Made by a program: the position numbers and the translations under genes
Notes under the pieces: generated by a model
Seen by the model: only the letters and a program-made list of their open reading frames with translations
Databases searched by the model: none
What the model was told of the DNA's origin: nothing
Source of the DNA: an uncultured candidate division Zixibacteria bacterium
GTDB taxonomy: Bacteria > Zixibacteria > MSB-5A5 > UBA10806 > 4484-95
Assembly: GCA_963668625.2 (NCBI GenBank)
Contig: CAXXKA010000006.1
Location: 160,001 to 224,000 of the forward strand
DNA length: 64,000 nt
Direction of reading: 5' to 3'
Shown here: positions 2,370-40,198 of the stretch, in pieces
Position numbering within the stretch: position 1 is the first letter of the stretch
How the letters are laid out: every line of letters starts with the position of its first letter

Positions 2370-2534
2370 TAACGGAGTATGTTGATTTTATATTGCCGGA
2401 GATGTTAATTCGATTAAATAACAGGGAGCTTAGATTTAGGACTTTCAGATTAAGTTATGGAAAGTCTTGATTTTATACTATACGTTTTATAAATTTCCCC
2501 GAAAATAATGATAAAAATAACTCAAGGAGATTTT

Positions 2535-3670
2535 ATGGATATTGGAATAGCCAAAGAGGGTGATCATCTTGAAAACAGGGTTGCGCTAACTCCCGCCGGC
2601 GCGAAAACCCTGATAAACGCCGGTCATACGGTTTATCTGGAGCAGGGCGCCGGAGAGGCATCAGGATTCCAGGATGACGATTATCTGGATGTCGGCGTAA
2701 AACTGGTTTACTCCGAGGAGGAGATATTTTTACGCTCTAAAATATTGCTAAAAGTTGCTCCCCCGACAATCGATGAATGTGAAATGATGCCGGGAAAACC
2801 AGATCGTGCTGACGGCCTTTCATCTGGCTGTGGCGCCGGAGGATAGCTTGAAGCTGCTCCTGGAAAAGAAGATCAGCTCTGTAGGTTACGAGATTATCGA
2901 GGATGATGAGGGTAACCTGCCGGTTGTCGTTCCGATGTCTGAATTAGCAGGTCAGATGACGATTCAGATCGCCAGCAACCATCTGATGAACAGCCGAGGT
3001 GGTCGAGGTATCCTTCTGGGCGGAGCCGCCGGTGTGCCGCCGGCAACGGTGATAATTCTGGGCGCGGGCACGCTTGGCATAAACGCTGCCAAGACGGCTA
3101 AAGGCATCGGCGCCAACGTAATCCTGTTCGACAGCGATATCAGCCGTCTGAGATATGCCAACGACTTGTTCAAAAAACAAATCGTTACTTATCTTCCGTT
3201 CGAGTACAACCTCGAAAAAGCTGTTCAAATCGCCGATGTTATTATCGGTGCGGTTTCCATTCACGGTGAGATGGCGCCCAAGCTTATTACCGAGAAGATG
3301 CTCAAGTCGATGAAGCCTCGGTCATTGGTAATAGATGCCGCTATCGATACCGGAGGGATGTATCGAAGCCTCACATCCTACCAACTGGACCGATCCGACC
3401 TATGTCTCGGAAAATATCATTCATTTCTGTGTACCAAATATGCCGTCCAATATTAGCCGTACGGCCACCTATGCATTATCCAACGCTATCCTGCCTTATG
3501 TTTACCGTATAGCAGAGGTCGGGCTTGATAAATCGATGCAACAGGATTACGGCCTGGCTCGTGGTGTTTATACTCATAAAGGAGAAGCATTGAGAAACGT
3601 AGTTGCCAATAGACTGGGAATTAAAGCCAGGGCTTTGAAAGATATTCTTGCTGTGGGGGGTAAGGCATGA
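2535..3670 (+). CDS. ald: Alanine dehydrogenase (2 probable frameshifts at ~2793 and ~3356)
   Basis: IGIAKE..ENRVALTP, PMSELAG, GRGILLGG, IDTGGC and CVPNMP motifs spread over three consecutive ORFs. Confidence 0.9.
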
Positions 3671-4964
3671 GGTGGATAGATCTCTATCATAGCCGTCAAA
3701 TATCCGCGGATGATGCGGTGAAATGCATAAAGTCGGGAGATAATGTTTATATACATCCCGGCTGCTGTACACCGGAATATCTCGTTGATGCTATGGTAAA
3801 ACGTAAAGACGAACTCGAGAATGTCACGGTTATGCACATCCTGACCGAAGGCAAGGCGGCTTATACTCAGCCGGGTATGGAACCTCATTTTCGTCACCGT
3901 TCGTTGTTTACCGGTAAAAAACGCCCGACAGGCGGTGAACGAAGGGCGTGCCGATCAATCGCATATGTTTTTAGGCGAGGTGGAAAAGCTCTGGACAACC
4001 GGCATCGTTGATGTTGACGTGGCGATTATCCAGGTCAGTCCGCCTGATGAACACGGTTTCTGCTCGTTCGGCGTAGGTGTCGATGTTACCATGACGGCTG
4101 CCCATAAAGCCCAAAATCGTGCTGGCCATGGTCAACCAGAAAATGCCGCGCGTTCACGGTGACTGCTTCATTCATGTTAGCAAGCTCACTCATATTGTCG
4201 AACATACTACGCCTCTTTTGGAGATGCCGCAGGGTACCCCCGATGAGGTCTCGATAAAAATCGGTAAGCTGATTGCCGATCATATCGATGATGGTTCGAC
4301 ACTTCAGATGGGGATCGGGGCTATTCCCGACGCGTTTCTATCGGAGCTCGAAGGCCGTCATGATATGGGTATTCACACCGAGATGTTTTCCGACGGTATC
4401 ATCCCGCTGGTAGAATCAGGCGTGATCAATAACTCGCAAAAGACTCTTCACCCCGGTAAGATAGTCGCGGCTTTTACCCTGGGCACCCGGCCGATATTCG
4501 ATTTCTGCGATGATAATCCGTTGTGTGAATTCCATCCCTGCTGGTACACCAACGATCCGTTTATCATAGCCCAGAACGACAAGATGGTCTCGATCAACTC
4601 GGCTTTAGGTGTCGACCTGACCGGCCAGGTATTTGCAGATTCGCTGGGATTCAATTTCTATTCGGGATTCGGCGGCCAGCTTGATTTCGTAAGGGGTGCG
4701 GCTAAATCCAAAGGCGGTATGCCTTTCATCGCTTTGCCCGCCACTGCCAAAGGCGGCAAACTCTCGAGAATCGCACCTAACTTGCCGTTGGGAACCGGCG
4801 TAACCACCACTCGTGGCGATGTCCACTGGATCGTGACCGAGTTCGGCGCGGTTGATCTTTACGGCAAAACCGTACGTGAGAGAACGAAACTACTTATCAG
4901 CATAGCGGCTCCTCAGTTCAGGGAGGAGTTGGAGAAATTCGCCAAGGAGCATAAATATATCTAG
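3667..4964 (+). CDS. Acetyl-CoA hydrolase/transferase family (4-hydroxybutyrate CoA-transferase-like; 2 probable frameshifts at ~3920 and ~4111)
   Basis: QVSPPDEHGFCSFG, LQMGIGAIP, HTEMFSDG, SGFGGQLDF and VTEFG motifs; ATGA overlap with ald. Confidence 0.88.
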
Positions 4965-7635: not shown

Positions 7636-9854
7636 ATGATTGGAAATGAGGTAAGAAAGATTAATTCGAGATTGATGTTCGCCTGCCTGGCGGTTTTGTT
7701 TGCCCTCCTTTACTCTGGAAATTCCGGCGCAACAACAATAAGCGGTGTCGTCATAGACTCGTTGACGAATGAGAGACTTCCCGGAGTAGTCGTAAAGCTG
7801 GTAAACTCATCGGTTGGTACCCACACCGACGCTGAGGGCCGATTCAGTTTGTTCATTGATGATACGGATGAGATCGAGGAAGGGCTGAAATTTCATCTTA
7901 TAGGTTTTCACGATAAAACAATCAGGATCGATGATTTCGAGTCGCCTGATAATCTGAAAATATACATGTCCTATTCAGCCTGGAAACTCGATCAGGTGGT
8001 TGTTACTGCGACCCGCAGAGAATATATCTTAAAAGATGTGCCGATTACGACCGAGCTTATTACCGCCGAGGAATTTAAAGAGACAGGCGCGTTAACTGTC
8101 GATGAGGCTTTAAGCTCTCATATCGGTGTTAATATCTCCGATGATCTATCCGGTAAAGGCGTTATTCTTCGCGGTATCGATCCCTCGCGCGTGCTGATCA
8201 TGATAGATGGCGACAGGGTGATCGGCCGGGTGCAGGGTTCGTTGGATATGGGACAGATATCGCTGGCTAATGTCGAGCGTATCGAGATCGTTAAAGGCAC
8301 CGGCGCAACGCTGTATGGCTCGGACGCTATCGGCGGGGTGGTAAATATTATCACCAAAAAGCCATCCGCTTTTAACTCGCTCGATCTTTACTCCAGTTAC
8401 GGAAGTTTCAATACATACGATTTTCAGGCCGGGGTTAATTCGACAGTCATAGGCAGAGGAATTAACCTTACCGCCAAGTTCATGCATACCGATGGTTTCG
8501 ACCTCGATGAGAGCACCGAGCACACCAACGGACTGGAGGATACCGACAGGTTCAACGCCAACGCAAAGATGCTGTTCAAGCCGCCGATAATCTCGATTTG
8601 GATTTTTCGCTGGGATTCATGGCTGAGGATAAAGACTGGAAGGAATCCGAGGTGGTGCAGATAGGTGTCGACCGCGATACGGTATATAACTATGATGACT
8701 CCGAGCGTAATTATCGCTACGATATAGCAGCCAAGCTGCGCTGGCAGATCGATCCGGTGGCTGATTTCACTTTCGATATTCATGGCTCGTACTACGATCA
8801 TATCTGGAAAAAATTCACGCGCTCCAATGCCTGGATAGATACCTCCGAAACCGATGATGATATCGTAGGATCGTCTTTTCAATATAACAGGATGTTCACC
8901 AACAATCACATACTCACGTTCGGCGGTGATATATTCACGCAGGGTTTGAATTCCAATCAACTGGCCTCGGGTAGCGAACGCGTGCGCAACGAGGATTTGT
9001 ACATGCAGTACGAATGGCGGCCGGTCAGTAAGCTGGTGTTTTTACCGGGCTTGCGCTGGGAACATCACGAAACCTACGGGCACTATTTCAATCCGAGTCT
9101 AAACGCCATGTGGGATGCCTGTAGATTTTTCAATCTGCGCGGCTCGATCAGCAAAGGATTCCGCGCGCCCTCGATCAAGGAACTGTATTTCGAGTTCGAT
9201 CACAGCGCCGCTGGATATATAGTGTACGGCGGCGGCGAGGAACTCGATCCGGAGACGAGTATCAATTACTCGTTAACCGCGGAGATCAACTACAGCCAAG
9301 AAGCCGTTCATCGCCTTACCTATTTCAGAAGCGATCTGAAAAATTTAATCGAGTTCACGGAGGGCGATTTCTCCGATCCTACCTACTGGCGGGGAATTTA
9401 TTACTATGGCAATATCGTGAAAGCGAAAACCGAAGGGATCGAATGGGAGACGCAGATAAAGGCACTCAATAAACTCGATCTATCTTTTTCATACACTTAT
9501 CTCAGCGCGAAAAATCTTACCGAGAAGATCGATCTGATAAACCGTCCCGACCATACGTTCAAATTCAACACCGGCTATGTGATATCACCTATTGATACCA
9601 GGCTTAGCCTGTGGGGATTCTGGCATGACAGGAAACTGTGGATATCGCAGGCGGAGACATCGGAACGCAGCAGCGATGCTTACGCGCCCTCGCGCTGGAA
9701 TCTGAATGCCGGCCTATCGCGGGAATTGTTCGATAAAATCGAGTTGTTCGTAAAGGTTAATAATATATTGGATGAGAAAAACGCGAATTTCGGTTACTGG
9801 CCCGAACGAAGTTACACTGTAAGTATTAATTATAATTTTAGTAGGAGTAATTAA
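7636..9854 (+). CDS. TonB-dependent receptor (HmuR-like) with N-terminal carboxypeptidase-regulatory-like domain; probable frameshift at ~8581
   Basis: VVVTATR TonB box, RIEIVKG..LYGSDAIGGVVNIITK plug, FRAPSIKELY, C-terminal YNF. Confidence 0.9.
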
Positions 9855-29988: not shown

Positions 29989-31659
29989 TTATCTCATCGT
30001 ACCTACGTAATGTGCGGTATACTGACGATCTTTGATTCTCTCATCGGTGTAGTCAGGTAGAAGCATCGGGGCAACGCGGCCGTTATCCACACCGGCGTCA
30101 TCAACCTCTTTGTTGAACCTGGCAACGTGATCGAGCGAGAGCTTGCCGTCTTTGGCTTTATCTTTGGCGTAAAGCGCGGCGCTCTTGCCGGAAATCCTGC
30201 CGAATACCATGATATCCAGCAGCGAATTACCCATCAAGCGATTCTCGCCATGCACACCGCCGCCTACCTCGCCGGCAACGAACAGGCCGGGCAGGGAGGT
30301 TTCGCTGTTGCTCTTGTATTCGAGTCCGCCGTTCTGGTAGTGAAGAGTCGGGTAGATCAACATCGGCTCTTTCGCGATATCGATACCGAAACGTTCATAC
30401 AAGATATGCTTGCCTGGGAATTCACGCTCTACTGTTCCTTCACCGTGTAGCATATCGATCATCGGTGAATCAAGCCAGATACCGAGCTTGCCGGTCGGCG
30501 TGGGAACGCCTTTGCCAACTACGGTACACTGCCTGATAATCGAGGCTGCCTCGACATCGCGCGGTTCGCGTTCGTTGACGAACTGGTTACCCTCGATATT
30601 GACCAGGTTAGCACCCGAGCCCCGGAATTTCTCGGTTATCAAAATACCCTCGGCTTGCTCCGGGAAGACGATACCTGTCGGGTGATACTGCACCGTATGC
30701 AGGAAGCAGATTTTCACGCCCGCGCGATAACCCATCACGATACCATCGGCGGTCGCGCCGTAATGGTTCGTGGTCATGAAACCTTGAACGTGCAAGCGAC
30801 CGGATCCGCCGGTAGCCATCACGACAGACTTGGCTTTAACGATCGTGTATTCCTCGGTTTCCATGTTGTACAGCACGGCGCCGGCACAATGCCCATGCTC
30901 GTTTAAAATAAGTTCGACAGCCGGTGAGAATTCTATCACCTGAATGTCGGCGGAACGATTTCTTGACTCGTCGCGTACGGTGCGCATCATCTCCGCGCCA
31001 GTGATATCCGCGGCGTAATGCATACGCTTGCGCGATGTGCCGCCGCCATGAATGGTGTAGAGAGTACCATCGGGCATCTTACTGAAATTACAGCCGAGTT
31101 TTTCCAGCCACTTGATGGCGCTGGGAGCTTCGTTAACCAATGTCTCGACCAATTCGGGATCGTTTACGAAATGCCCGCCGCCCATGACATCGAGGTAATG
31201 AAAGTAGGGGGAATCCTTGTGGCCTTTGCTGGCGGCTTGGATACCGCCCTCGGCCATCATCGTGTTGGCATCACCATGGCGAAGCTTGGTAGCTATGATA
31301 ACTTTCGCGCCCTGTTCCTGGGCAAGAATAGCGGCCGATGTTCCAGCGCCGCCGCCGCCAATTACCAGCACGTCGGTTTCGTAATCGACTTTGGCGAGAT
31401 CGATATCGGCGGGATTAACACGGCTTTTAGCCTCCAGCAGGTCGGCCATCTCGTGAGCAATGCGGTAGCCTTTACTTGGTCCGACTTTAACTTCGCGGCG
31501 ACCTTCCTCTTTGAAATCGGGATGATTGTCGAGCATCTCCTTGCGCTCATCCAGGGATAAGAACGGAACTTCCTCATCGCGTTTTTTACGCTCGACTCTT
31601 TCGGATCGAGTTTTCTCGACCGCCTTGATCAATTGTTTTAATGATTCTGGGTATGGCAT
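29989..31659 (-). CDS. Fumarate reductase/succinate dehydrogenase-family flavoprotein (TfrA-like)
   Basis: VIGGGGAG, AEGGI, QYHPT, TE..RG.G, PRD, LHYQNGG, HGENRLMGNSL. Confidence 0.88.
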   Translation of the reverse strand: MPYPESLKQLIKAVEKTRSERVERKKRDEEVPFLSLDERKEMLDNHPDFKEEGRREVKVGPSKGYRIAHEMADLLEAKSRVNPADIDLAKVDYETDVLVIGGGGAGTSAAILAQEQGAKVIIATKLRHGDANTMMAEGGIQAASKGHKDSPYFHYLDVMGGGHFVNDPELVETLVNEAPSAIKWLEKLGCNFSKMPDGTLYTIHGGGTSRKRMHYAADITGAEMMRTVRDESRNRSADIQVIEFSPAVELILNEHGHCAGAVLYNMETEEYTIVKAKSVVMATGGSGRLHVQGFMTTNHYGATADGIVMGYRAGVKICFLHTVQYHPTGIVFPEQAEGILITEKFRGSGANLVNIEGNQFVNEREPRDVEAASIIRQCTVVGKGVPTPTGKLGIWLDSPMIDMLHGEGTVEREFPGKHILYERFGIDIAKEPMLIYPTLHYQNGGLEYKSNSETSLPGLFVAGEVGGGVHGENRLMGNSLLDIMVFGRISGKSAALYAKDKAKDGKLSLDHVARFNKEVDDAGVDNGRVAPMLLPDYTDERIKDRQYTAHYVGTMR

Positions 31660-31675
31660 ATATCAACCTCTATTC

Positions 31676-32428
31676 CTATAGTCCGTAATTATCTTTGGGA
31701 GTCCAGTCCTCGCCCGCCATTGCCGGCTCCATCTCCCGTTCCTGGTATGTTTTTTTAAGTTCGTCGGTGCTCATGCCTTTGAGCTTATCGATAGCTTCTT
31801 TGAACCTGTCGGCATCGATATTGGCAACCATCGTTTTAAGATGTTCGGCCCTGGGGGTCAGGTAGGAACCTTTTATTCGGCGAGCCAACTGGGCGATATG
31901 ATACTGCGGCAGCTCACCGTAGCATCTACTGGCGCACAGGCCGCACTGGATGCAGTCGAATGAAATCTCGGCGGCGGCGGCGATATCGCCACGTTTCAGA
32001 GACGAGATATAATCCATTACCTGGACATCCATGGGGCAAACCTTGGTACAGGCGTTACAGGCCACGCACCTGAATAACTCGGGATACAGGCTGAATATCT
32101 CCTCCGGTGCGCCGGTTAGCTTATCGAAATCGTAGGTAGCGCGATTGGCCGGATAGAACGGTAACTGGGTCAAGTACATATCGGGTTCGACAACGGTCTG
32201 GCAGGCCAGGCCGGTGTAGATTTTATAATCGCCCGGTTTGCGATAGACGGTACTGCATGCACCACAAACGCCACCTCGACAGCCGCAACCGCGAATATAC
32301 TTATAACCCGCGTATTCCATGGCTTTCATGATAGTCAACGTTTCCGGCACTTCGTATTTCTTCCCCATTATGTAGATGGGGATGAGCTTTGCCTCAACGG
32401 TTATTTTCGCCTCATCAGAAACGCTCAT
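31676..32428 (-). CDS. FrdB/SdhB-like iron-sulfur protein ([2Fe-2S] plus 2x[4Fe-4S] motifs)
   Basis: GCRGGVCGAC...LAC; CVACNACTKVCP; CIQCGLCASRC. Confidence 0.85.
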   Translation of the reverse strand: MSVSDEAKITVEAKLIPIYIMGKKYEVPETLTIMKAMEYAGYKYIRGCGCRGGVCGACSTVYRKPGDYKIYTGLACQTVVEPDMYLTQLPFYPANRATYDFDKLTGAPEEIFSLYPELFRCVACNACTKVCPMDVQVMDYISSLKRGDIAAAAEISFDCIQCGLCASRCYGELPQYHIAQLARRIKGSYLTPRAEHLKTMVANIDADRFKEAIDKLKGMSTDELKKTYQEREMEPAMAGEDWTPKDNYGL

Positions 32429-32469
32429 TTTTACCTCACTAGATGTATTAAAATATTGAACATTATTTT

Positions 32470-33360
32470 CTAAGCCGTTACTTCTTTTAAGATATTTTTA
32501 TCTTTGAGAATTTCGGTAGCGCTTGGCCTGTTCAGCTCGAGATGCAGGGTGTCTGGGGAGCAGCCTAAGGCCAGCGCCAGTAGTTGCGAGAAATAAAACA
32601 CCGGGATATCTTTGGCATCCTCGAATTTCTGCAGCATCATACCCTGACGGCGAGACAGATTGTAATCGCATAAGGGGCAGGTTAACACCATAGCCTCCGC
32701 GCCACGGGTCGAGGCATCCTTTAAGATATCGTAGGACACGTTCAGGGCGGCATCGGGATTGCCCAGCACCTGGTAGCTACCGCAGCATTCGGTGGCCATC
32801 GAAAAGTCAACCACCTCCGCGCCGAGAGCTTCCATGAATTTATGGAACAACTCGGGATTATCAGGGCTGTCTAAGGCGACATCTTTTGGTCTTAGCAGGG
32901 TGCAGCCGTAGTAAGGCGCCACCTTTATGCCGTTAAGCGGATTAGCGACTTTTTCTTTGAGCTTATCGAAACCGTACTCATCACGTATGTAGTCGAGGAA
33001 ATGTATCACCTTGACTTCGCCGAAGTAATCCGGTTCTTCATCCATGAACGAGTTGATAGTGTTTCTTTTCTCCTCGTCGTTTTTCATCAGTTCGTTGGCT
33101 CGAGCCAGCGTATTGTAGCACATCGAGCAAAGAGTGATAACCGTATCGTTACCCTGCTCTTTAACCCTGATCAAATCGCGAACCGGGGCGACGATATGAA
33201 TCAAGTCGTCATCGGCCAGCGAGTAGACGGCGCCGCAACAGTTCCACCGGGGCAGTTCCTCGTATTCGACACCGAGAGTATCTAAAGCCGCCAGCGCGGA
33301 CTTTTCGAGATTTTTGGCTTTCGTTTTTAACGTGCAGCCGGGGTAGTAACTTATTTTCAT
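32470..33360 (-). CDS. hdrB: Heterodisulfide reductase subunit B-like (CCG domains)
   Basis: YYPGC, WNCCG, CSMC, YYGC, ECCG, CPLC. Confidence 0.88.
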   Translation of the reverse strand: MKISYYPGCTLKTKAKNLEKSALAALDTLGVEYEELPRWNCCGAVYSLADDDLIHIVAPVRDLIRVKEQGNDTVITLCSMCYNTLARANELMKNDEEKRNTINSFMDEEPDYFGEVKVIHFLDYIRDEYGFDKLKEKVANPLNGIKVAPYYGCTLLRPKDVALDSPDNPELFHKFMEALGAEVVDFSMATECCGSYQVLGNPDAALNVSYDILKDASTRGAEAMVLTCPLCDYNLSRRQGMMLQKFEDAKDIPVFYFSQLLALALGCSPDTLHLELNRPSATEILKDKNILKEVTA

Positions 33361-33368
33361 AGCTTTCC

Positions 33369-33776
33369 TCACGATGTCATTTTACGGAAGGTGGAAACCA
33401 TGGCGATCTGGGGAGTCTCTTTGATATCCTCAGGGTCGAGGCTGGATGGTTCCAATTGGTTGACGTTCCGGCGAAGCTTTATCAAGCGCAAAGCCTCCAT
33501 CACCTTCGGGATATCGATATCCCTCGGACATCTCACCTGGCAGGTATGGCAAGAGGCGCAAACCCAGGGGGTATTGGCCATATCCAGAGCCTCGGACTGT
33601 CCGTATTGTAACATTATCATCACCTGGCGTGGCAGCAACCCGATTTCCTCGTTCATCGGGCATGACCCTGAACATGTTCCGCATTGGAAACATTGACCGA
33701 CATTCTGGCCGCTAATCTCCATCACCTTGAGGCGAAGCTTATTGTTAATGGTTCGCTTTGAGATTTTTAATGCCAT
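33369..33776 (-). CDS. hdrC: Heterodisulfide reductase subunit C-like ferredoxin
   Basis: CFQCGTCSGSCP, WVCASCHTCQVRCPR, VMEALR. Confidence 0.88.
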   Translation of the reverse strand: MALKISKRTINNKLRLKVMEISGQNVGQCFQCGTCSGSCPMNEEIGLLPRQVMIMLQYGQSEALDMANTPWVCASCHTCQVRCPRDIDIPKVMEALRLIKLRRNVNQLEPSSLDPEDIKETPQIAMVSTFRKMTS

Positions 33777-34151: not shown

Positions 34152-35201
34152 ATGAGATTAACAAAGTTTTTAACGGTAACATTCCTAGCTGTTTTATTAC
34201 CTGTGTCTCTGACTTTCGGGCAAACCGGAACATCCGCTCAGAAACCTGCGGTGGCGAAACAAAAAGCGACTATCGAGGACGCGAGTAAATCGAAAGATAG
34301 AAATCCTGTTATTTCCAGGTCAAAAAAGCAAGAACCTGAACCGGAAATACCACTTTCTGATGCCAGAATCGCGTTTGAGTATTCAAAGTTTGATTTCGGC
34401 ACGGTTCCGAACGGCGCCCAGATGACACATTATTTCCCGGTCACGAACATCGGGCCGGATACTCTGTATATTACAAAAATCAAAGCTGGGTGAGGATGCA
34501 CTACGTCAAAAGCGAGCGGGATAGTTATTCCGCCAGGAGATAGCGCCTTAATAGATGTTTCTTATCGTTCATCTAAATCGACTAAGAATACCAGGCGCAT
34601 AACCAAGCGTATCAGCGTTCACTCGAACGATTCCTCGAATCCTGTGGCCAGCCTGACTATTCAAGCCCAGGCTAATATGTCGGAATCCGTGTTAAAATGG
34701 AATCCTGACAAGGCTGAATTCAATCAGGTACTTATCGGTAAAGGTGATAAGTTCAAACTCGAACTCCAGAACACCGATAGCACCGATATAAGGCTTGAGG
34801 TCGTAAGCGAACCTGATCCGCAAATCGTTAAAAAGTATAAAATAAAGAAAGATAAACTCAAACCCAATCAGACTACCGAGATTGAGTTCGAATTGAGAGA
34901 AGATTTACCTCCGGGAGTTTTCAAAACGACCTTAACCGCCCAGATAGAGGGTAGTGGCTCTAACAGGTTCTCGATACCTATTACCGGCACTGTGGTTGAG
35001 AAAATTAGCCCGGAAAAACCGGTGGCGGCCTCTCACAAAAAACCGCCCGCAAAGAAGAGCAGCAATGTTAAATCAGGCAAAAAATTTGACCCTAATACCG
35101 GCATACAGGTTAAAAAACCGGTCGTTAATGATAGGGCCGAATCGAAACCTGCTACACAAACTATACCGCTCTCCACTATCGACGATTCTGATCTCAAATA
35201 A
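34152..35201 (+). CDS. Exported DUF1573/Ig-like protein, predicted selenoprotein (Sec at TGA 34491-34493; 349 aa)
   Basis: ORFs 34152-34493 and 34644-35201 are in the same frame with only the TGA between them; reads IKAG-U-GCTT and aligns with IKPG-C-GCTT of the next paralog. Confidence 0.85.
34516..34533 (+). promoter_or_regulatory. Candidate bacterial SECIS element
   Basis: GCGGGAT-AGTT-ATTCCGC hairpin, separated from the TGA by 22 nt. Confidence 0.75.
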
Positions 35202-35228
35202 TCTTTATCTTAAATTCACGAAATTAGT

Positions 35229-35253
35229 AAACCGGTCTTATGGCCGGTTTTTT
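35229..35253 (+). terminator. Intrinsic terminator between paralogs 1 and 2
   Basis: AAACCGGTC-ttat-GGCCGGTTT followed by a T-run. Confidence 0.7.
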
Positions 35254-35349
35254 GTTATCGGTATTTTCCCGTCATTTTCAGTTTTAGCTCAATTGAGGTT
35301 CATAACATTTCATTAAGTATATTCGATTTTTAACGGAAGGAGTAAAACG

Positions 35350-36267
35350 ATGTACGGACGTATCAATTTCATGATTTGCTTGATTGCTGTGCTGGTTCTA
35401 TCGAGTGGTGTTCAGGTCTCTTTCGGCCAAACAGCGAAAACAAGAACCAAACCCCTCACGAAAACCAAATCCAAAATTGTAACTCAAAAAGATAAATCTA
35501 CCCCGGAGATACCCCCGAATAATTCAACGATCACTTTCGATCATGAGCAGTTCGATTATGGTGTCGTGCCCAGGGGAGAGCAAGTTACGCATCATTTCCC
35601 CGTGAAAAATACCGGTACCGATACATTGACGATTACCCGGATTAAACCCGGATGCGGTTGTACGACCACCCGTAAGAGCAGTATTGTGCTGCCTCCCGGT
35701 GAAAGTTCGCTGATAGATATCACTTATCGATCCTCAAAATCAGCGAGATCGGGGCATAAGGTTACCAAGAGAATTCGCATAGAATCAACCGACTCGCAAA
35801 AACCTACCCTGCAACTTTCGATTTCCGCCCGTACCGACACAGCGGATTGTATGTTAAGATGTCGCCCGGAGATGGTTGATTTGGGCGAGGTTTTAATAGG
35901 TAAGGATGATAAATTCGAGGTTGAAATAACTAACATCGATTCTCTGAAGTCGGAGATTATGGTGGTCAGTGAGCCGACTTCCGAATTCATAAAAAAGTTC
36001 AAGATCAAGAAAGACAAATTAAAATCAGATCAGAAAACGAAAATCGAATTTCAGCTTCAGGATAATATTCCTCCGGGCGAATTCAAAACGGCTCTTACTA
36101 TCGAGGCGAATAACGATTCTAAATCTCGTATCTCCATTCCGATTCATGGCAAAATAGTCGAATCATTTAGCGAAAAGAAAACCAGCAAAGCCGGGCAGGA
36201 GATGTCGTCATCGGCCGTTAGCGGCCACCCTAAAGTATCTACCGTTGACGATTCGGATTTAAAGTAG
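35350..36267 (+). CDS. Exported DUF1573/Ig-like protein, Cys (CGC) paralog
   Basis: Signal peptide; FDYG, F.VKNTG..L.I..IKPGCGCT, LPPGES. Confidence 0.9.
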   Translation: MYGRINFMICLIAVLVLSSGVQVSFGQTAKTRTKPLTKTKSKIVTQKDKSTPEIPPNNSTITFDHEQFDYGVVPRGEQVTHHFPVKNTGTDTLTITRIKPGCGCTTTRKSSIVLPPGESSLIDITYRSSKSARSGHKVTKRIRIESTDSQKPTLQLSISARTDTADCMLRCRPEMVDLGEVLIGKDDKFEVEITNIDSLKSEIMVVSEPTSEFIKKFKIKKDKLKSDQKTKIEFQLQDNIPPGEFKTALTIEANNDSKSRISIPIHGKIVESFSEKKTSKAGQEMSSSAVSGHPKVSTVDDSDLK

Positions 36268-36415
36268 AGTGATATCGAGAACATACATTTTAAATCCATA
36301 GAACTAGCCGGGTTTTCTTTATTTTTAGCTGTTCACACGACAGTTTTTACATTAAATTCGGTGAAGGAAAACAGGAGGTGGATATCGTTAGTAATCGTTC
36401 GAGGGATAGAGCTAA

Positions 36416-37171
36416 ATGATGAATAAGATTATCCCGGTTTTAAAGTCAATAGTCATGGTGTTTGCGATGGTCGGAGCGTCTATGGCTCAAAACTCCGGTA
36501 ATGAAATTACTGCCAACTCGACGGTTGATGCGGTCATTAATTTCGAACACATGGAATTTGATTTTGGAGCGATACCGCCGGGCGCCGGGGTTGCGCACGA
36601 ATTTTCCGTAAAAAACGAGGGCTCGGACACCCTTGTCATTCATCGAATTAAACCCGGCTGAGGTTGTACGACTTTAGATAAGAGTGCGATAGTTATCGCG
36701 CCGGGCGAAAGTTCTGAGATCGGAATTATTTATAAAGCGCCGAAAACCGACAAATATATTGGCAAGCAAAGAAAAAGGATAACGGTTTATTCCAATGATC
36801 CGGTTAATCCGGTACTTGCTATATATATAGCCTCTTCAGTTAACAGACCTGATATGCCTTTTGCAGTCGAGCCTGCCGAGGTTGATTTCGGCGTGGTGAT
36901 GGCCGGCGAATCTAAAACCCGGACGGTTACGATTGCAAATGTGAGTCAACTGGATTTGAGTCTGTTGGCTATCGATGAACCTGATGATATCTTTATAAGT
37001 GATTATAAGTTACAGTCTGCTGATTTAAAGTCCGGTCAGTCGACAGCATTAAGTATTACTCTTCAAAGTGAACACGTAGTCGAGGAATTCGTTACCTCTA
37101 TTACGCTCGAGACAAGCGGGCAATTCGCCAAACGCTTATCGATTCCGATTCATGGCATGATCGTGAAATAA
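36416..37171 (+). CDS. Exported DUF1573/Ig-like protein, predicted selenoprotein (Sec at TGA 36659-36661; 251 aa)
   Basis: ORFs 36416-36661 and 36854-37171 are in the same frame; reads IKPG-U-GCTTLDKSAIVIAPGES...ITVYSNDP with no other stop. Confidence 0.85.
36684..36701 (+). promoter_or_regulatory. Candidate bacterial SECIS element
   Basis: GTGCGAT-AGTT-ATCGCGC hairpin, separated from the TGA by 22 nt. Confidence 0.75.
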
Positions 37172-37363
37172 TCATCCTCCAAAATTAATTAACATACAAC
37201 TATAGGTAATATAGACAGCCTATATTTCTAATATATGAGTTAATTTCTGCATTGTTGCATTCCTGTTAAGAGGGTGAACGTTTTGATGGAAGGTAATGTA
37301 TCTGCGAGCATTCTTTCCGAAAATAAAAACAAAGAAACATCAGAGATGAAATTGGAGGAAAGG

Positions 37364-38950
37364 ATGAGAACTATTAAACTCCTTGCTGTGGCCGTTATTA
37401 CTATTTTGATTTGTGCCACAACAGTCAATGCCCAGGGTTTTTCCTCGCTTATAGAGAAGCTGGATCAACTTGAAGCCAAATTGGCCGAACTGGAGAATTC
37501 ACAAAAACAGGATGTTGCCAATTTAAAGAAAGAGTTGGCCAACTCACCGAAAGGCGCTAATAACTCTGAAAGCCAGGCCGCTATCAAGAAGATGTCGTCC
37601 AAGCTGGATGCTATGAACGCTGAGCTGACCGAGGTGAAAACAGGTTCCGAGAAGATACAAGCTAACTATGATATGTTGATGGCCGAGCTATTAGAGCTTA
37701 CTTACGCTCTCAAACAGACTATGAAGGAACAGGACGCGACCGGTCATAAACCTGCTTATCGCGCCGAGGTGTCATCGCCCAAACCGATGTCGAGCCAGGC
37801 GCCGAAATCCGAAAAATCGGCTAAACCTATCTCGAATGGTGAGCCGTCCCTGAGTTATCAGCCGTATGGTTATATCAAACTTGACGGTTCTTACGATCAG
37901 AATTTGACCAGCCACGGTAATTTCGCAATGTGGGTGAAGCCAAAATCTTATGAAAAAGATGATGAGCAACTGAACATGACCGCCAACCAGAGCCGCCTCG
38001 GATTTAAAATCGATAGCCAGAATTATGGCGAATATAAGCTTCATGGGCAGTTCGAGGTTGACCTCTATGCCAGTGTCTCCGGTGGAGTGGCCGAGAACAA
38101 GGGAATGTTCCAACTTCGTCATGCGTTTTTCTCGATAGAAAAAGGTAACACCAAACTACTGGCCGGCCAGTATTGGGACCTTTACAGCCCATTAAATCCC
38201 TCTACCATTAACTATCCGGTGCTCTGGGGCGCCGGTAACACCGGTTACCGTCGCGCGCAGATTACGCTGGCTCAGTCATTCTCTATGGGAACGCAAACTA
38301 CGGGCACGCTTTCCGGCGGCGCGTTCCGTACTATCGGTTCTGATTTGACTCCGACGCTCGAGTGGAGCCTCGAGGATTCCAGCGAAACCTCCGATGGCGA
38401 GGATGACGGCACCGATGCCGGTATTCCCACGGTTCAGGGAAGGCTCGATATCAATCACAGTTTCGCTTCAGGTTCAAAACTGTTGGTGGGTGTTTCCGGT
38501 TTATGGGGCCAACTCAAGGCCGAGACCAATCGCGGCAACAACAACACTTACGAAAGTTGGGGTGTATGCGGCCATATGAAATGGTCGTGGAGCAAATTCG
38601 GTTTGGCCGGTGAATATTACAGCGGCTCGAACCTCGGATCCTATTTCGGCGGTATACTCAATTCGAGCACTATAGACGGCACCAATGCGCAAGGTGGCTG
38701 GGGATTCGCCTGGATAAAGACCTCACCCAAGACGAAGCTCGGATTCGGTGTAGGCAACGATACGGCTAAAGAGGAGGATATCTCCTCCGGCAGCCGTCTG
38801 AAAAATCAATCGATTTTCGGTAATATCAATTACTCGATAGTCAAGAACGCTACTGTTGGCCTCGAGCTCTCTCAGTGGCAAACAGAGTATAAGGATGGCG
38901 AGACCGAGAAGAGTTTCCGCGCCCAGACAGCTTTCACGTTTAGTTTCTAA
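37364..38950 (+). CDS. DcaP-like outer-membrane porin with N-terminal coiled coil
   Basis: Signal peptide, coiled coil, YGYIKLD, TANQSRLG, FEVD, LRHAF, LAGQYW, C-terminal F. Confidence 0.78.
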   Translation: MRTIKLLAVAVITILICATTVNAQGFSSLIEKLDQLEAKLAELENSQKQDVANLKKELANSPKGANNSESQAAIKKMSSKLDAMNAELTEVKTGSEKIQANYDMLMAELLELTYALKQTMKEQDATGHKPAYRAEVSSPKPMSSQAPKSEKSAKPISNGEPSLSYQPYGYIKLDGSYDQNLTSHGNFAMWVKPKSYEKDDEQLNMTANQSRLGFKIDSQNYGEYKLHGQFEVDLYASVSGGVAENKGMFQLRHAFFSIEKGNTKLLAGQYWDLYSPLNPSTINYPVLWGAGNTGYRRAQITLAQSFSMGTQTTGTLSGGAFRTIGSDLTPTLEWSLEDSSETSDGEDDGTDAGIPTVQGRLDINHSFASGSKLLVGVSGLWGQLKAETNRGNNNTYESWGVCGHMKWSWSKFGLAGEYYSGSNLGSYFGGILNSSTIDGTNAQGGWGFAWIKTSPKTKLGFGVGNDTAKEEDISSGSRLKNQSIFGNINYSIVKNATVGLELSQWQTEYKDGETEKSFRAQTAFTFSF

Positions 38951-38976
38951 AGCAATCAGAATACGACAAACTTACG

Positions 38977-39003
38977 AACCGCCTCATAATGGGGCGGTTT
39001 TTT
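38977..39003 (+). terminator. Intrinsic terminator
   Basis: AACCGCCTC-ataat-GGGGCGGTT followed by a T-run. Confidence 0.75.
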
Positions 39004-39174
39004 CATTACCTTTTTTGTTATGATACTTATTTTATTCAATGCTCATAATATTATTGGAGCCACAGATGAATCAATTTCTCGGATCAAAATCCTTCGCTAA
39101 GCGCCTGGGCCATACGATCGAGACTTTAAACTTTAGTCTCTCCTACGCAATGAATTTATGTTTTGAAAAAGTTC

Positions 39175-39192
39175 GAAAAACACCGGACACTA
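39175..39192. repeat. Orphan copy of the MITE right-end sequence
   Basis: GAAAAACACCGGACACTA, identical to 40056-40073. Confidence 0.75.
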
Positions 39193-39290
39193 ATAATAAA
39201 GGATCTATAATGTATGGTATGGATCCGTCTTATTTAATCGGTAGTAAGTAATAGAACCGTAAATGCCTAATGTTCGATATGGATTAAGGA

Positions 39291-40198
39291 ATGATTATGA
39301 ATTCGAATCGTATTATAATTGCAGTAATAATGTTATTAACTTTTGCTTTCTCCTCCACCGTGTTTTCTCAATCGATGTTCTTGCAGAACGAGCAATCCGG
39401 CATTTTATTAGGAGGAGGTATCGAATTCCGTGAGAGCGCTCAAGCTTACGAGGTTTTTGCCTCGTATTCGTTAGCGTCGGTATTGGATATATCGGCGTTT
39501 ATTGGCGATTTGAACGCCGGGAATGCGGACTACAGTGATGGTAATTACATGGGATTCGGGCTAATGGCACATTTATTGAGATCAGGCGCCAATTTAAGCT
39601 ATTCGATTGCCCCGATGTTCTCGCATAGTAAGATAAATTACGATGCTATCTCAGATGATCAAGTTACCGATACTTACGGCGGCTTTTTATATATTCGAAG
39701 CAACAGCTTACGATCCAGATTTTTCCTGGTTGGTGTTGGCATTACCAATTCGAAATCCTCGCTTGAGGTCGGTGGAGATAAGTTTTCCGAGGAAGAGATG
39801 GGATTTACGATAGATTTCAATTCACCATTGTCCGGCCTTCCCATCTCGTTGCGAAGCGCTGCTTCGCAACGTGACTTTTGGGCCGGCAAAATGCGCATTC
39901 TACATGACACAAGAAGGTTTCCAAGCAGCGCTTGGAAACCAGGGAACTAAGCCTAACATAGGCAGGACATATCAGGATGCATGATACGCTGAATATATAA
40001 TTATATCGGAAAACATCTTTCACTAACAATTCCAAGGAGAATTTTAAAGTTTACTGAAAAACACCGGACACTAGTGATTTCAATTATTGTGTTAATCTGC
40101 AAAGCGGTAATAAATTTATCATTAATCCAAGTTTACTCTTTATCGATGATGAAACCGTAACCGGCATTAAATTTGCTTTCATGCTGAGTAATATGTAG
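39291..40198 (+). pseudogene. Probable outer-membrane beta-barrel gene interrupted by a MITE (restored product 214 aa)
   Basis: Removing 39823-40085 restores the frame ...FTIDFN-YCVNLQSGNKFIINPSLLFIDDETVTGIKFAFMLSNM*. Confidence 0.8.
39823..40076. mobile_element. 254-bp non-autonomous MITE
   Basis: TIRs CACCATTGTCCGG / CCGGACACTAGTG (11 of 13 match); 9-bp TSD ATTTCAATT at 39814-39822 and 40077-40085. Confidence 0.88.

Follow-up and report, generated by a model that had tools for sequence, protein, structure and literature searches.

Two short hairpins, each lying just 3' of an in-frame TGA in one of two neighbouring genes, are very probably bacterial SECIS elements contained within the coding sequence of DUF1573-family selenoprotein genes, as judged from their conservation among related genes. 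Since all printed rules of the bacterial SECIS (bSECIS) model hold for these two copies and DUF1573 "UGC" selenoproteins (OS_HP2, first described in PMC1976440) have been in print since 2007, they are an ordinary case of the general model in a known selenoprotein family and do not constitute a new SECIS class; knowledge of SECIS elements and of the DUF1573 family is left unchanged by the finding.

The locus and its protein family

The window, i.e. the whole 64-kb stretch of DNA that was analysed, carries on its forward strand DUF1573 selenoprotein gene 1 (34152..35201; 349 aa when read through), a Cys paralog (35350..36267; 305 aa) and DUF1573 selenoprotein gene 3 (36416..37171; 251 aa), the Cys paralog being located between both TGA genes. 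The in-frame TGAs, read here as selenocysteine, occupy 34491..34493 (+) in gene 1 (U114, in K-A-G-U-G-C-T-T) and 36659..36661 (+) in gene 3 (U82, in K-P-G-U-G-C-T-T), and both represent the U position of a U-G-C motif; the Cys paralog bears TGC at 35653-35655. In the alignment the selenocysteine position, that of gene 1 included, coincides with a Cys that is invariant among homologs, the UGA standing at the first Cys of a C-G-C motif and thereby yielding U-G-C, and Cys homologs exist, as in the DUF1573 / OS_HP2 selenoprotein family; DUF1573 with a "UGC" motif is entered as a selenoprotein family in the tables of PMC9312934 and PMC13188914. A terminator-like hairpin followed by a T run (35229..35250, +) lies 3' of gene 1, which may therefore be a separate transcription unit. 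This gene is the syntenic ortholog of single genes in two related loci (L045 and L060), and its product combines a signal-peptide-like N-terminal segment with two Ig-like domains.

All three proteins match PF07610 (83.4, 86.3 and 94.8 bits; gathering cutoff 26.1) and also, at 73.3, 82.4 and 76.9 bits, the NCBIfam model NF041425 'OS_HP2 family (seleno)protein', whose cutoff is 100 bits. The window's clade as a whole scores 66-85 bits with the latter model, below its cutoff, whereas the Desulfobacterales clade scores 103-138 bits; the window genes are therefore placed in the wider DUF1573 selenoprotein family and not in the curated OS_HP2 subfamily, and their clade is a sister subfamily that the curated model would leave unnamed. 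The window genes resemble the OS_HP2/DUF1573 'UGC' family in their PF07610 domain, in the selenocysteine within U-G-C at a conserved Cys and in having Cys homologs, but differ from it in that their clade's SECIS, with its AGUU loop and a stem starting at +22, is unlike the hairpins of the Desulfobacterales, Acidobacteriota and Cloacimonadota clades. A PDB sequence search returned ciliary Ig-like proteins and weak matches alone; the AlphaFold model (mean pLDDT 75.7, with both Ig-like domains above 90) matched generic tandem Ig/ASH folds when compared by Foldseek with the PDB, and none of these three approaches furnished a functional lead.

Structure and conservation of the hairpins

Hairpin 1 (GCGGGAU-AGUU-AUUCCGC; 34516..34533, +; stem arms 34516-34522 and 34527-34533, loop 34523-34526) and hairpin 2 (GUGCGAU-AGUU-AUCGCGC; 36684..36701, +; stem arms 36684-36690 and 36695-36701, loop 36691-36694) have exactly the sequences and positions given in an earlier, sequence-only reading of this DNA, and both are present in MFE and centroid folds. 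In either gene the 7-bp stem begins 22 nt past the TGA and the loop 29 nt past it; the "identical 22-nt spacer" of that reading is identical in length, but in sequence only 13 of the 22 bases match. The three stem pairs that it described as differing between hairpin 1 and hairpin 2 do so in a per-pair table (C-G/U-G, G-C/C-G and G-U/G-C), the change being two-sided only in the middle one. The stability of the hairpins when compared to shuffled sequence is not unusual (z -1.92, with 7 of 200 shuffles as stable, for the 31-nt piece around hairpin 1; z -0.89, with 33 of 200, for that around hairpin 2), and the case is built on comparison among genes.

A TGA-pattern scan of 185,579 species genomes produced 77 matches in 75 loci, 46 of which are DUF1573 frames open across the TGA; after deduplication, 44 unique TGA genes were available beyond the window's two. 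The hairpin is present, at the same offset, in the five nearest relatives (L060, L045, L018, L025a and L025b, from four genomes), and the AGUU loop keeps a constant offset without any indel in all seven TGA genes of the clade (these five together with genes 1 and 3, or win1 and win3). Across the seven genes 48 of 49 stem cells (7 genes x 7 pairs) are paired, the sole mismatch being a C-U in L025b, and three of the seven stem pairs show double compensatory change; the observed pairing and covariation values were reached in 2-6 of 500 shuffles, and at slid control positions 29-71% of cells were paired. RNAalifold on the seven genes returned exactly the AGUU hairpin and no other structure. The proposal that these hairpins are SECIS-like is supported by compensatory changes in 7/7 clade TGA genes and by their fit to the printed rules.

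These rules, as set out in PMC13188914, ask for 3-9 nt in the apical loop, 4-16 bp in the upper stem, an MFE of -7.5 kcal/mol or below, and a G at loop position 1 or 2 that is usually followed by G or U. A loop of 4 nt and a stem of 7 bp are found in both window copies and in four of the five relatives (L025b has 6/7 pairs), the AGUU loop (G at position 2, then U) is found in 7/7 TGA genes of the clade, and the distance from UGA to loop, made up of the 22-nt spacer and a 7-nt arm, is 29 nt in 7/7, in agreement with the printed spacing rule. For the hairpin alone, the energies are -7.7 and -7.9 kcal/mol in the window, -7.7 in L060 and -8.2 in L045, and weaker than -7.5 kcal/mol in L018 (-6.7), L025a (-6.9) and L025b (-4.8); folded within 31 nt, the two window hairpins have centroid values of -8.7 and -8.9 kcal/mol. 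With the general bSECIS of PMC13188914 the window copies have in common a stem-loop that lies within the ORF, directly 3' of the Sec UGA, and an energy of -7.5 kcal/mol or below; they differ from it in nothing structural, the window hairpin being short, fully paired and free of bulges. A contiguous-stem bSECIS scan, which ignores bulged stems and was hence not used as a test of other clades, placed 10 of the 46 TGA genes at -7.5 kcal/mol or below. The SECIS elements of E. coli fdhF and fdnG expose a G-U in an apical loop that is recognised by the C-terminal domain of SelB, and they are embedded in the ORF, inside the coding sequence, so that the downstream peptide is constrained; they are longer than the window hairpin and contain a bulged U. 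The window hairpins lack the bulge and are alike in the loop G-U and the coding-region position.

A hairpin-only covariance model of 22 nt (R1), trained on the seven clade sequences, matched within the 64 kb only the two SECIS sites (35.4 bits for hairpin 1 and 32.7 bits for hairpin 2; the next score was 12 bits, E 0.9). R1 found no copy beyond its seven training sequences in either the window or the 75 loci, and thus no sharing of the AGUU SECIS by another gene in that DNA. Other DUF1573 selenoprotein clades have different hairpins behind their UGAs, no other selenoprotein gene was found in the 64-kb window, and no Rfam family reached its gathering score in the 64 kb, the matches around the genes being sub-threshold chance ones (E at least 0.25). 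The AGUU hairpin is confined to one clade of the DUF1573 gene family, and the earlier idea of a "lineage-specific SECIS" stands in this narrow sense only; what it designates is an ordinary bSECIS instance. That the selenoprotein family had already been described goes unmentioned in the sequence-only reading.

The mechanism can be proposed by analogy with the general bacterial pathway summarised in PMC13188914. The mRNA would fold into the 7-bp stem and AGUU loop, with the first loop base 29 nt beyond the UGA; SelB carrying Sec-tRNA(Sec) and GTP would bind the G-U of the apical loop, and a ribosome reaching the UGA would receive selenocysteine from SelB rather than undergo release. What results would be a secreted protein of two Ig-like domains that bears a U-G-C motif. 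No selA, selB or selD domain was found among the 54 ORFs of the window scanned, nor any tRNA gene in the 64 kb, and we consequently infer, rather than see, the Sec trait of the organism.

Competing explanations

The hairpin overlaps the codons for S/R-G/A-I-V-I-P/A-P (part of S-G-I-V-I-P-P in hairpin 1 and of S-A-I-V-I-A-P in hairpin 2), and RNA pairing therefore constrains codon choice as well as amino acids. Conversely, the hairpin might have no RNA-level role and merely follow from conservation of the peptide S-G-I-V-I-P-P, which forms a beta strand in the domain: five of the seven pairs are dictated by amino acids alone (AGN/CCN, GG/CC, AU/AU), I-V-I is strand 124-126 in the AlphaFold model, and the peptide I-V-[IL]-P-P, or I-V-[IL]-[PA]-P-G, is also retained in Cys orthologs. 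We regard this explanation as improbable, because the pairs at wobble positions covary (C-G, U-A, A-U, U-G) and because Gly and Pro are jointly replaced by Ala and Ala in gene 3, with one residue encoded in each arm of the stem. Moreover, a single codon is used by all seven genes in only 3 of 35 amino-acid-invariant degenerate columns, two of which, side by side in the loop, hold ATA and GTT, whereas between 2 and 4 codons occur in the remaining Ile, Val-class and four-fold columns; and synonymous resampling at fixed peptide recovered the pairing together with the AGTT loop in about 0.6-1.4% of draws (p 0.006-0.014 per gene, six genes; 0.08 for L025b with its 6/7 pairs). Equally at odds with a peptide by-product, the stem-forming Gly of the Sec genes corresponds to Ser both in the window's Cys paralog and in P0005, P0013, P0014 and P0015, which are the Cys orthologs of that paralog, and P0004, a sixth Cys homolog, keeps the Gly but has Thr in place of the first Ile.

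Slightly less probable still is that the hairpin is a genuine RNA element serving something else, for instance the stability of the mRNA or a pause of the ribosome during export or folding of the protein, the UGA being read through independently of it. That the proteins look secreted and that the Cys paralog retains a weak hairpin in the corresponding stretch would agree with such a role, but the latter hairpin is at chance level, and among the eight genes read as DNA the AGUU hairpin is found in 7/7 with TGA and in 0/1 with Cys. Position, loop size and loop G-U are moreover those of the bSECIS model, and the different hairpins of the other clades are likewise kept behind UGAs.

It is very unlikely that the TGAs are genuine stops arising from pseudogenes, split genes or assembly errors, in spite of several frame-shifted genes in the window and of the fragments that gene callers produce from such genes (P0016-P0019 in the protein collection, P0018 being the window's own). 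Such a reading may also draw on the absence of Sec machinery from the window. Against true stops, the TGA falls exactly at the codon aligned with Cys in 46 unique genes, which belong to several phyla, both window TGAs are in frame within ORFs that are open and match DUF1573 on either side, and DUF1573 is a recognised selenoprotein family. Genome-wide reassignment of TGA (code 4 or code 25), to which nothing but the two in-frame TGAs lends itself, is scarcely credible, for many well-supported window genes end in TGA and, among frames of at least 150 codons coinciding with called genes, only genes 1 and 3 contain it internally.

The Cys paralog and the meaning of the locus

Under the SECIS reading, the middle paralog, which uses Cys, would need no SECIS and would have lost it. 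As had been noted beforehand, this gene lacks the AGUU loop and folds into a 6-bp hairpin, GCAGUA-UUG-UGCUGC (35678..35692, +); it is unmatched by R1, and its hairpin is shifted and out of register with the SECIS. Its stability (z -1.29, with 21 of 200 shuffles as stable) and the 4/7 pairs retained in register, a number equalled or exceeded in 0.15 of resampling draws, are both at chance level, and the candidate of a fossil SECIS in the Cys gene was consequently dropped. A search of 4 kb on either side of the TGA loci found no Cys paralog (50 of 51 rows have TGA, the lone TGC being the window's own), and the comparison of Sec and Cys genes at the DNA level therefore rests on one Cys gene.

The suggested origin of the Cys gene from a Sec ancestor is favoured by trees, in which the Cys clade is nested among Sec genes, but it is not settled: AU support is borderline (p 0.081 and 0.046 for tests of Sec monophyly). 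The short hairpin left in the Cys gene is indistinguishable from chance. We give slightly better than even credence to a fuller scenario in which a Sec gene of the gene 1 type would have been duplicated, exchanged Sec for Cys and subsequently undergone SECIS decay (stem Gly to Ser, loop codons changed), giving rise to the Cys paralog together with its four Cys orthologs, the locus also displaying how RNA pairing may force the paired Gly/Pro to Ala/Ala replacement. If true, this would be a clean, datable bacterial case of Sec-to-Cys conversion with parent and derivative still adjacent.

On a practical level, gene callers split such genes at the UGA, as the fragments in the protein collection attest, and NF041425 would not rescue the window's clade because its members score below the cutoff; the clade-specific 22-nt covariance model would flag them. 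Furthermore, the locus shows in a small space how codons and even amino acids are constrained by a coding-region SECIS, and it may exemplify Sec-to-Cys replacement following tandem duplication.

Three tandem DUF1573 genes and the reading of TGA

The window carries, at 34152-37171 on the + strand, a tandem array of three genes whose proteins all score 83-95 bits with Pfam DUF1573 (PF07610; cutoff 26.1) and 73-82 bits, under the cutoff of 100, with the NCBIfam model NF041425 "OS_HP2 family (seleno)protein". Gene 1 (34152-35201, +) has an in-frame TGA at 34491 and encodes 349 aa when read through; gene 2 (35350-36267, +; 305 aa) has TGC at the aligned codon 35653; and gene 3 (36416-37171, +; 251 aa read through) has an in-frame TGA at 36659. 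The motif around the Sec or Cys position in the three proteins is K-[AP]-G-[U/C]-G-C-T-T, and their N-termini, read by eye, look like signal peptides. The AlphaFold model of the gene 1 product comprises two confident Ig-like beta-sandwich domains (pLDDT >90 across about 70-285), with U114 in the turn that links strand 105-111 to strand 117-119 and the hairpin-encoded I-V-I as strand 124-126; sequence and fold searches of the PDB returned generic Ig/ASH-type matches only. A conserved acidic tail, [IV]-D-D-[ST]-D-[LIM]-[KR], closes genes 1 and 2 (35175-35198 and 36241-36264, +, by sequence comparison) and their orthologs (proteins P0005 and P0013-P0019) after a low-complexity linker; it is common to Sec and Cys forms, is missing from gene 3, and might serve as a signal for sorting or anchoring. 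Directly 3' of gene 1 lies a terminator-like hairpin with a T run (35229-35250), the probable source of the weak Rfam sRNA matches at 35197-35330.

Reassignment of TGA is ruled out, since many window genes terminate in TGA and, among frames of at least 150 codons coinciding with called genes, only genes 1 and 3 contain it internally. The Sec machinery is unseen within the window, given that a tRNA search there found none and that SelA, SelB and SelD domains are absent from the 54 window ORFs scanned; an Rfam search of the window yielded no family reaching its gathering score. Several window genes are split between frames (regions 2493-3670, 3845-4964 and 7636-9854), including an alanine dehydrogenase/PNT gene in three frames (2493-2846, 2788-3456 and 3335-3670), an acetyl-CoA hydrolase/transferase gene in at least two and a TonB-dependent receptor gene in two overlapping ones, and these are either assembly indel errors or pseudogenes.

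Conservation and specificity of the AGUU hairpins

Both hairpins that the sequence-only reading placed behind the TGA codons are borne out by window sequence, folding and per-pair comparison, down to the AGUU loops, the distance of 22 nt and the three pairs that differ; the spacer called identical, however, is so only in length, its bases agreeing at 13 of 22 positions (counted by hand). The rules for the general bacterial element (bSECIS), as set out in section 5 of PMC13188914, call for 3-9 loop nucleotides, 4-16 stem base pairs, a G as the first or second base of the loop, a UGA-to-loop distance of 16-37 nt and an MFE <= -7.5; the window hairpins agree with all of them (4-nt AGUU loop, 7 bp, 29 nt; -7.7 and -7.9 kcal/mol), whereas the bare hairpins of three relatives are too weak for the energy rule. 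The stability of 31-nt pieces is in itself unremarkable, as 7/200 and 33/200 shuffles fold as well as hairpins 1 and 2, respectively.

All seven TGA genes of the window's clade retain the AGUU loop at the identical offset without any indel, and their 5' stem arms (GCGGGAU, GUGCGAU, GCGGGAU, GCGGAAU, GUGGAAU, GAGGAAU and GCGGGAU) each have a matching 3' arm, such that 48 of 49 stem cells are paired, the sole mismatch being a C-U in L025b, one of two tandem copies at locus L025. Two-sided changes affect three of the seven stem pairs, namely pair 2 (C-G, U-A, A-U, U-G), pair 4 (G-C, C-G) and pair 5 (A-U, G-U, G-C). Shuffled controls reached the observed measures in only 2-6 of 500 cases, sliding the partner by 1-3 columns lowered pairing to 29-71%, and RNAalifold, run over the 55 nt 3' of the UGA, predicted the AGUU hairpin as the sole structure.

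The hairpin overlaps codons for S/R-G/A-I-V-I-P/A-P, and amino acids alone dictate 5/7 stem pairs. Selection on the RNA beyond the peptide is nevertheless shown by three results: the loop columns use single codons, synonymous resampling seldom restores the hairpin, and replacements are paired across the stem. Of the 35 degenerate columns whose amino acid is invariant across the seven genes, just three hold to one codon: ATA (Ile) and GTT (Val), which are neighbours in the loop, and GAT for an Asp; elsewhere, Ile columns draw on 2-3 codons. When codons were redrawn by the genes' own usage, five genes regained all seven pairs with the AGTT loop in 0.6% of draws and L025a in 1.4%; L025b regained its six pairs and the loop in 8%. 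In gene 3, Gly to Ala in the 5' arm is paired with Pro to Ala in the 3' arm, turning G-C into C-G.

A 22-nt, hairpin-only covariance model built on these seven genes (R1) finds two sites only in the window, scoring 35.4 and 32.7 bits (next match 12 bits, E 0.9), and nothing beyond its five training sites in the 75 loci of the genome scan described below. The AGUU loop is indeed absent from the Cys paralog, gene 2, whose in-register loop is UGUG, with 4/7 pairs kept and no R1 match at E up to 10; a shifted 6-bp hairpin in this gene does no better than chance in shuffle folding. In the protein alignment, the stem-forming Gly of the Sec genes is Ser in gene 2 and in the Cys orthologs P0005, P0013, P0014 and P0015, and is retained in a further Cys homolog, P0004. 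Genes 1 and 3 add two members to a selenoprotein family already known, and their hairpins, which are conserved and covary, are bacterial SECIS elements that we infer to act as SelB-binding sites.

Relatives of the TGA genes and hairpins of other clades

A single scan of genome contigs with the degenerate pattern K-x-G-TGA-G-C-T-T returned 77 matches at 75 loci, 46 of them within DUF1573 frames open across the TGA (HMM E <1e-10); the other 31, with no or negligible signal, are taken as chance. Once duplicates were removed, the window's two TGA genes were joined by 44 unique others, in MAGs labelled Thermodesulfobacteriota, Acidobacteriota, Cloacimonadota, Zixibacteria, Ignavibacteriota and others. 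Nearest to the window genes are loci L060, L045, L018 and L025. The opposite-strand cluster upstream of gene 1 (29989-33776, -), encoding a FAD-binding flavoprotein, two 4Fe-4S ferredoxin-like proteins and a CCG-domain protein (Hdr/Sdh-like), is kept beside the selenoprotein gene in L045 and L060, with 81-93% amino-acid identity for the four genes; L060 and L045 are orthologous loci in close relatives. L060 is titled 'uncultured Ignavibacteria bacterium' and L045 Zixibacteria, and as both share gene order and four-gene identity with the window, one taxon label may be wrong.

In L045 a single DUF1573 gene is followed directly by AI-2E transporter and ligase genes, and therefore genes 2 and 3 and the ORFs at 37274-39950 are extra in the window. 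The latter are two unnamed ORFs of 558 and 219 aa (37274-38950 and 39291-39950) with no Pfam match; the stretch separating gene 1 from the AI-2E transporter gene holds this ORF pair, missing from L045, as well as genes 2 and 3. Local duplication of the selenoprotein gene is recurrent, for Sec tandem pairs also occur in Zixibacteria (L025, 3496-5428), Cloacimonadota (L031) and Holophagae (L034). In a Cloacimonadota MAG (L006:3809-5248) the C-terminus of the DUF1573 selenoprotein carries a fused rhodanese domain, with matches under cutoff to rhodanese-type (seleno)protein models, a fusion that hints at a role of the U-G-C motif in sulfur/selenium transfer or redox.

The OS_HP2 selenoprotein was reported in 2007 (PMC1976440, Table 2). 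Desulfobacterales genes score above the NF041425 cutoff (103-138 bits), and the window's clade (66-85 bits) and the other tested clades below it. Unlike in the window's clade, the Acidobacteriota hairpin begins 12 nt past the UGA, with compensatory GC to UA and GC to AU changes in 4/12 rows; the Desulfobacterales hairpin, UCCCUC...GAGGGA, lies farther downstream; and Cloacimonadota genes have an invariant CCAGUUGGUCAACUGG behind the UGA. Since other clades keep different hairpins, the proposal of a lineage-specific SECIS holds only in that the AGUU hairpin is specific to one gene-family clade, as is usual for coding-region SECIS, but it is otherwise ordinary and founds no new SECIS class.

Origin of the Cys gene

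A second protein search recovered, for gene 2, four Cys orthologs at 52-62% identity, and also C-terminal fragments of gene 1-type Sec genes. Two of the fragments sit on the same contig as a Cys ortholog, and the Sec-Cys tandem therefore recurs in other genomes. In trees of moderate support, for which a DNA scan limited to TGA supplied the Sec rows and protein searches supplied the Cys rows, the Cys clade (100/100) is nested among Sec rows, adjoining gene 1 and the fragments P0016, P0019 and P0017 (85/95), with L045 and L060 (82/83), L018 (88/50), both L025 copies and gene 3 outside. Forcing the Sec rows together, a grouping named after a quick tree had been seen, costs 18.3 log-likelihood units (AU p 0.046), or 15.8 (AU p 0.081) in a smaller set. 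The suggestion that the Cys gene derives from a Sec ancestor is thus favoured by the nesting, although the AU test is borderline, and such an ancestry would be the most interesting reading of the locus.
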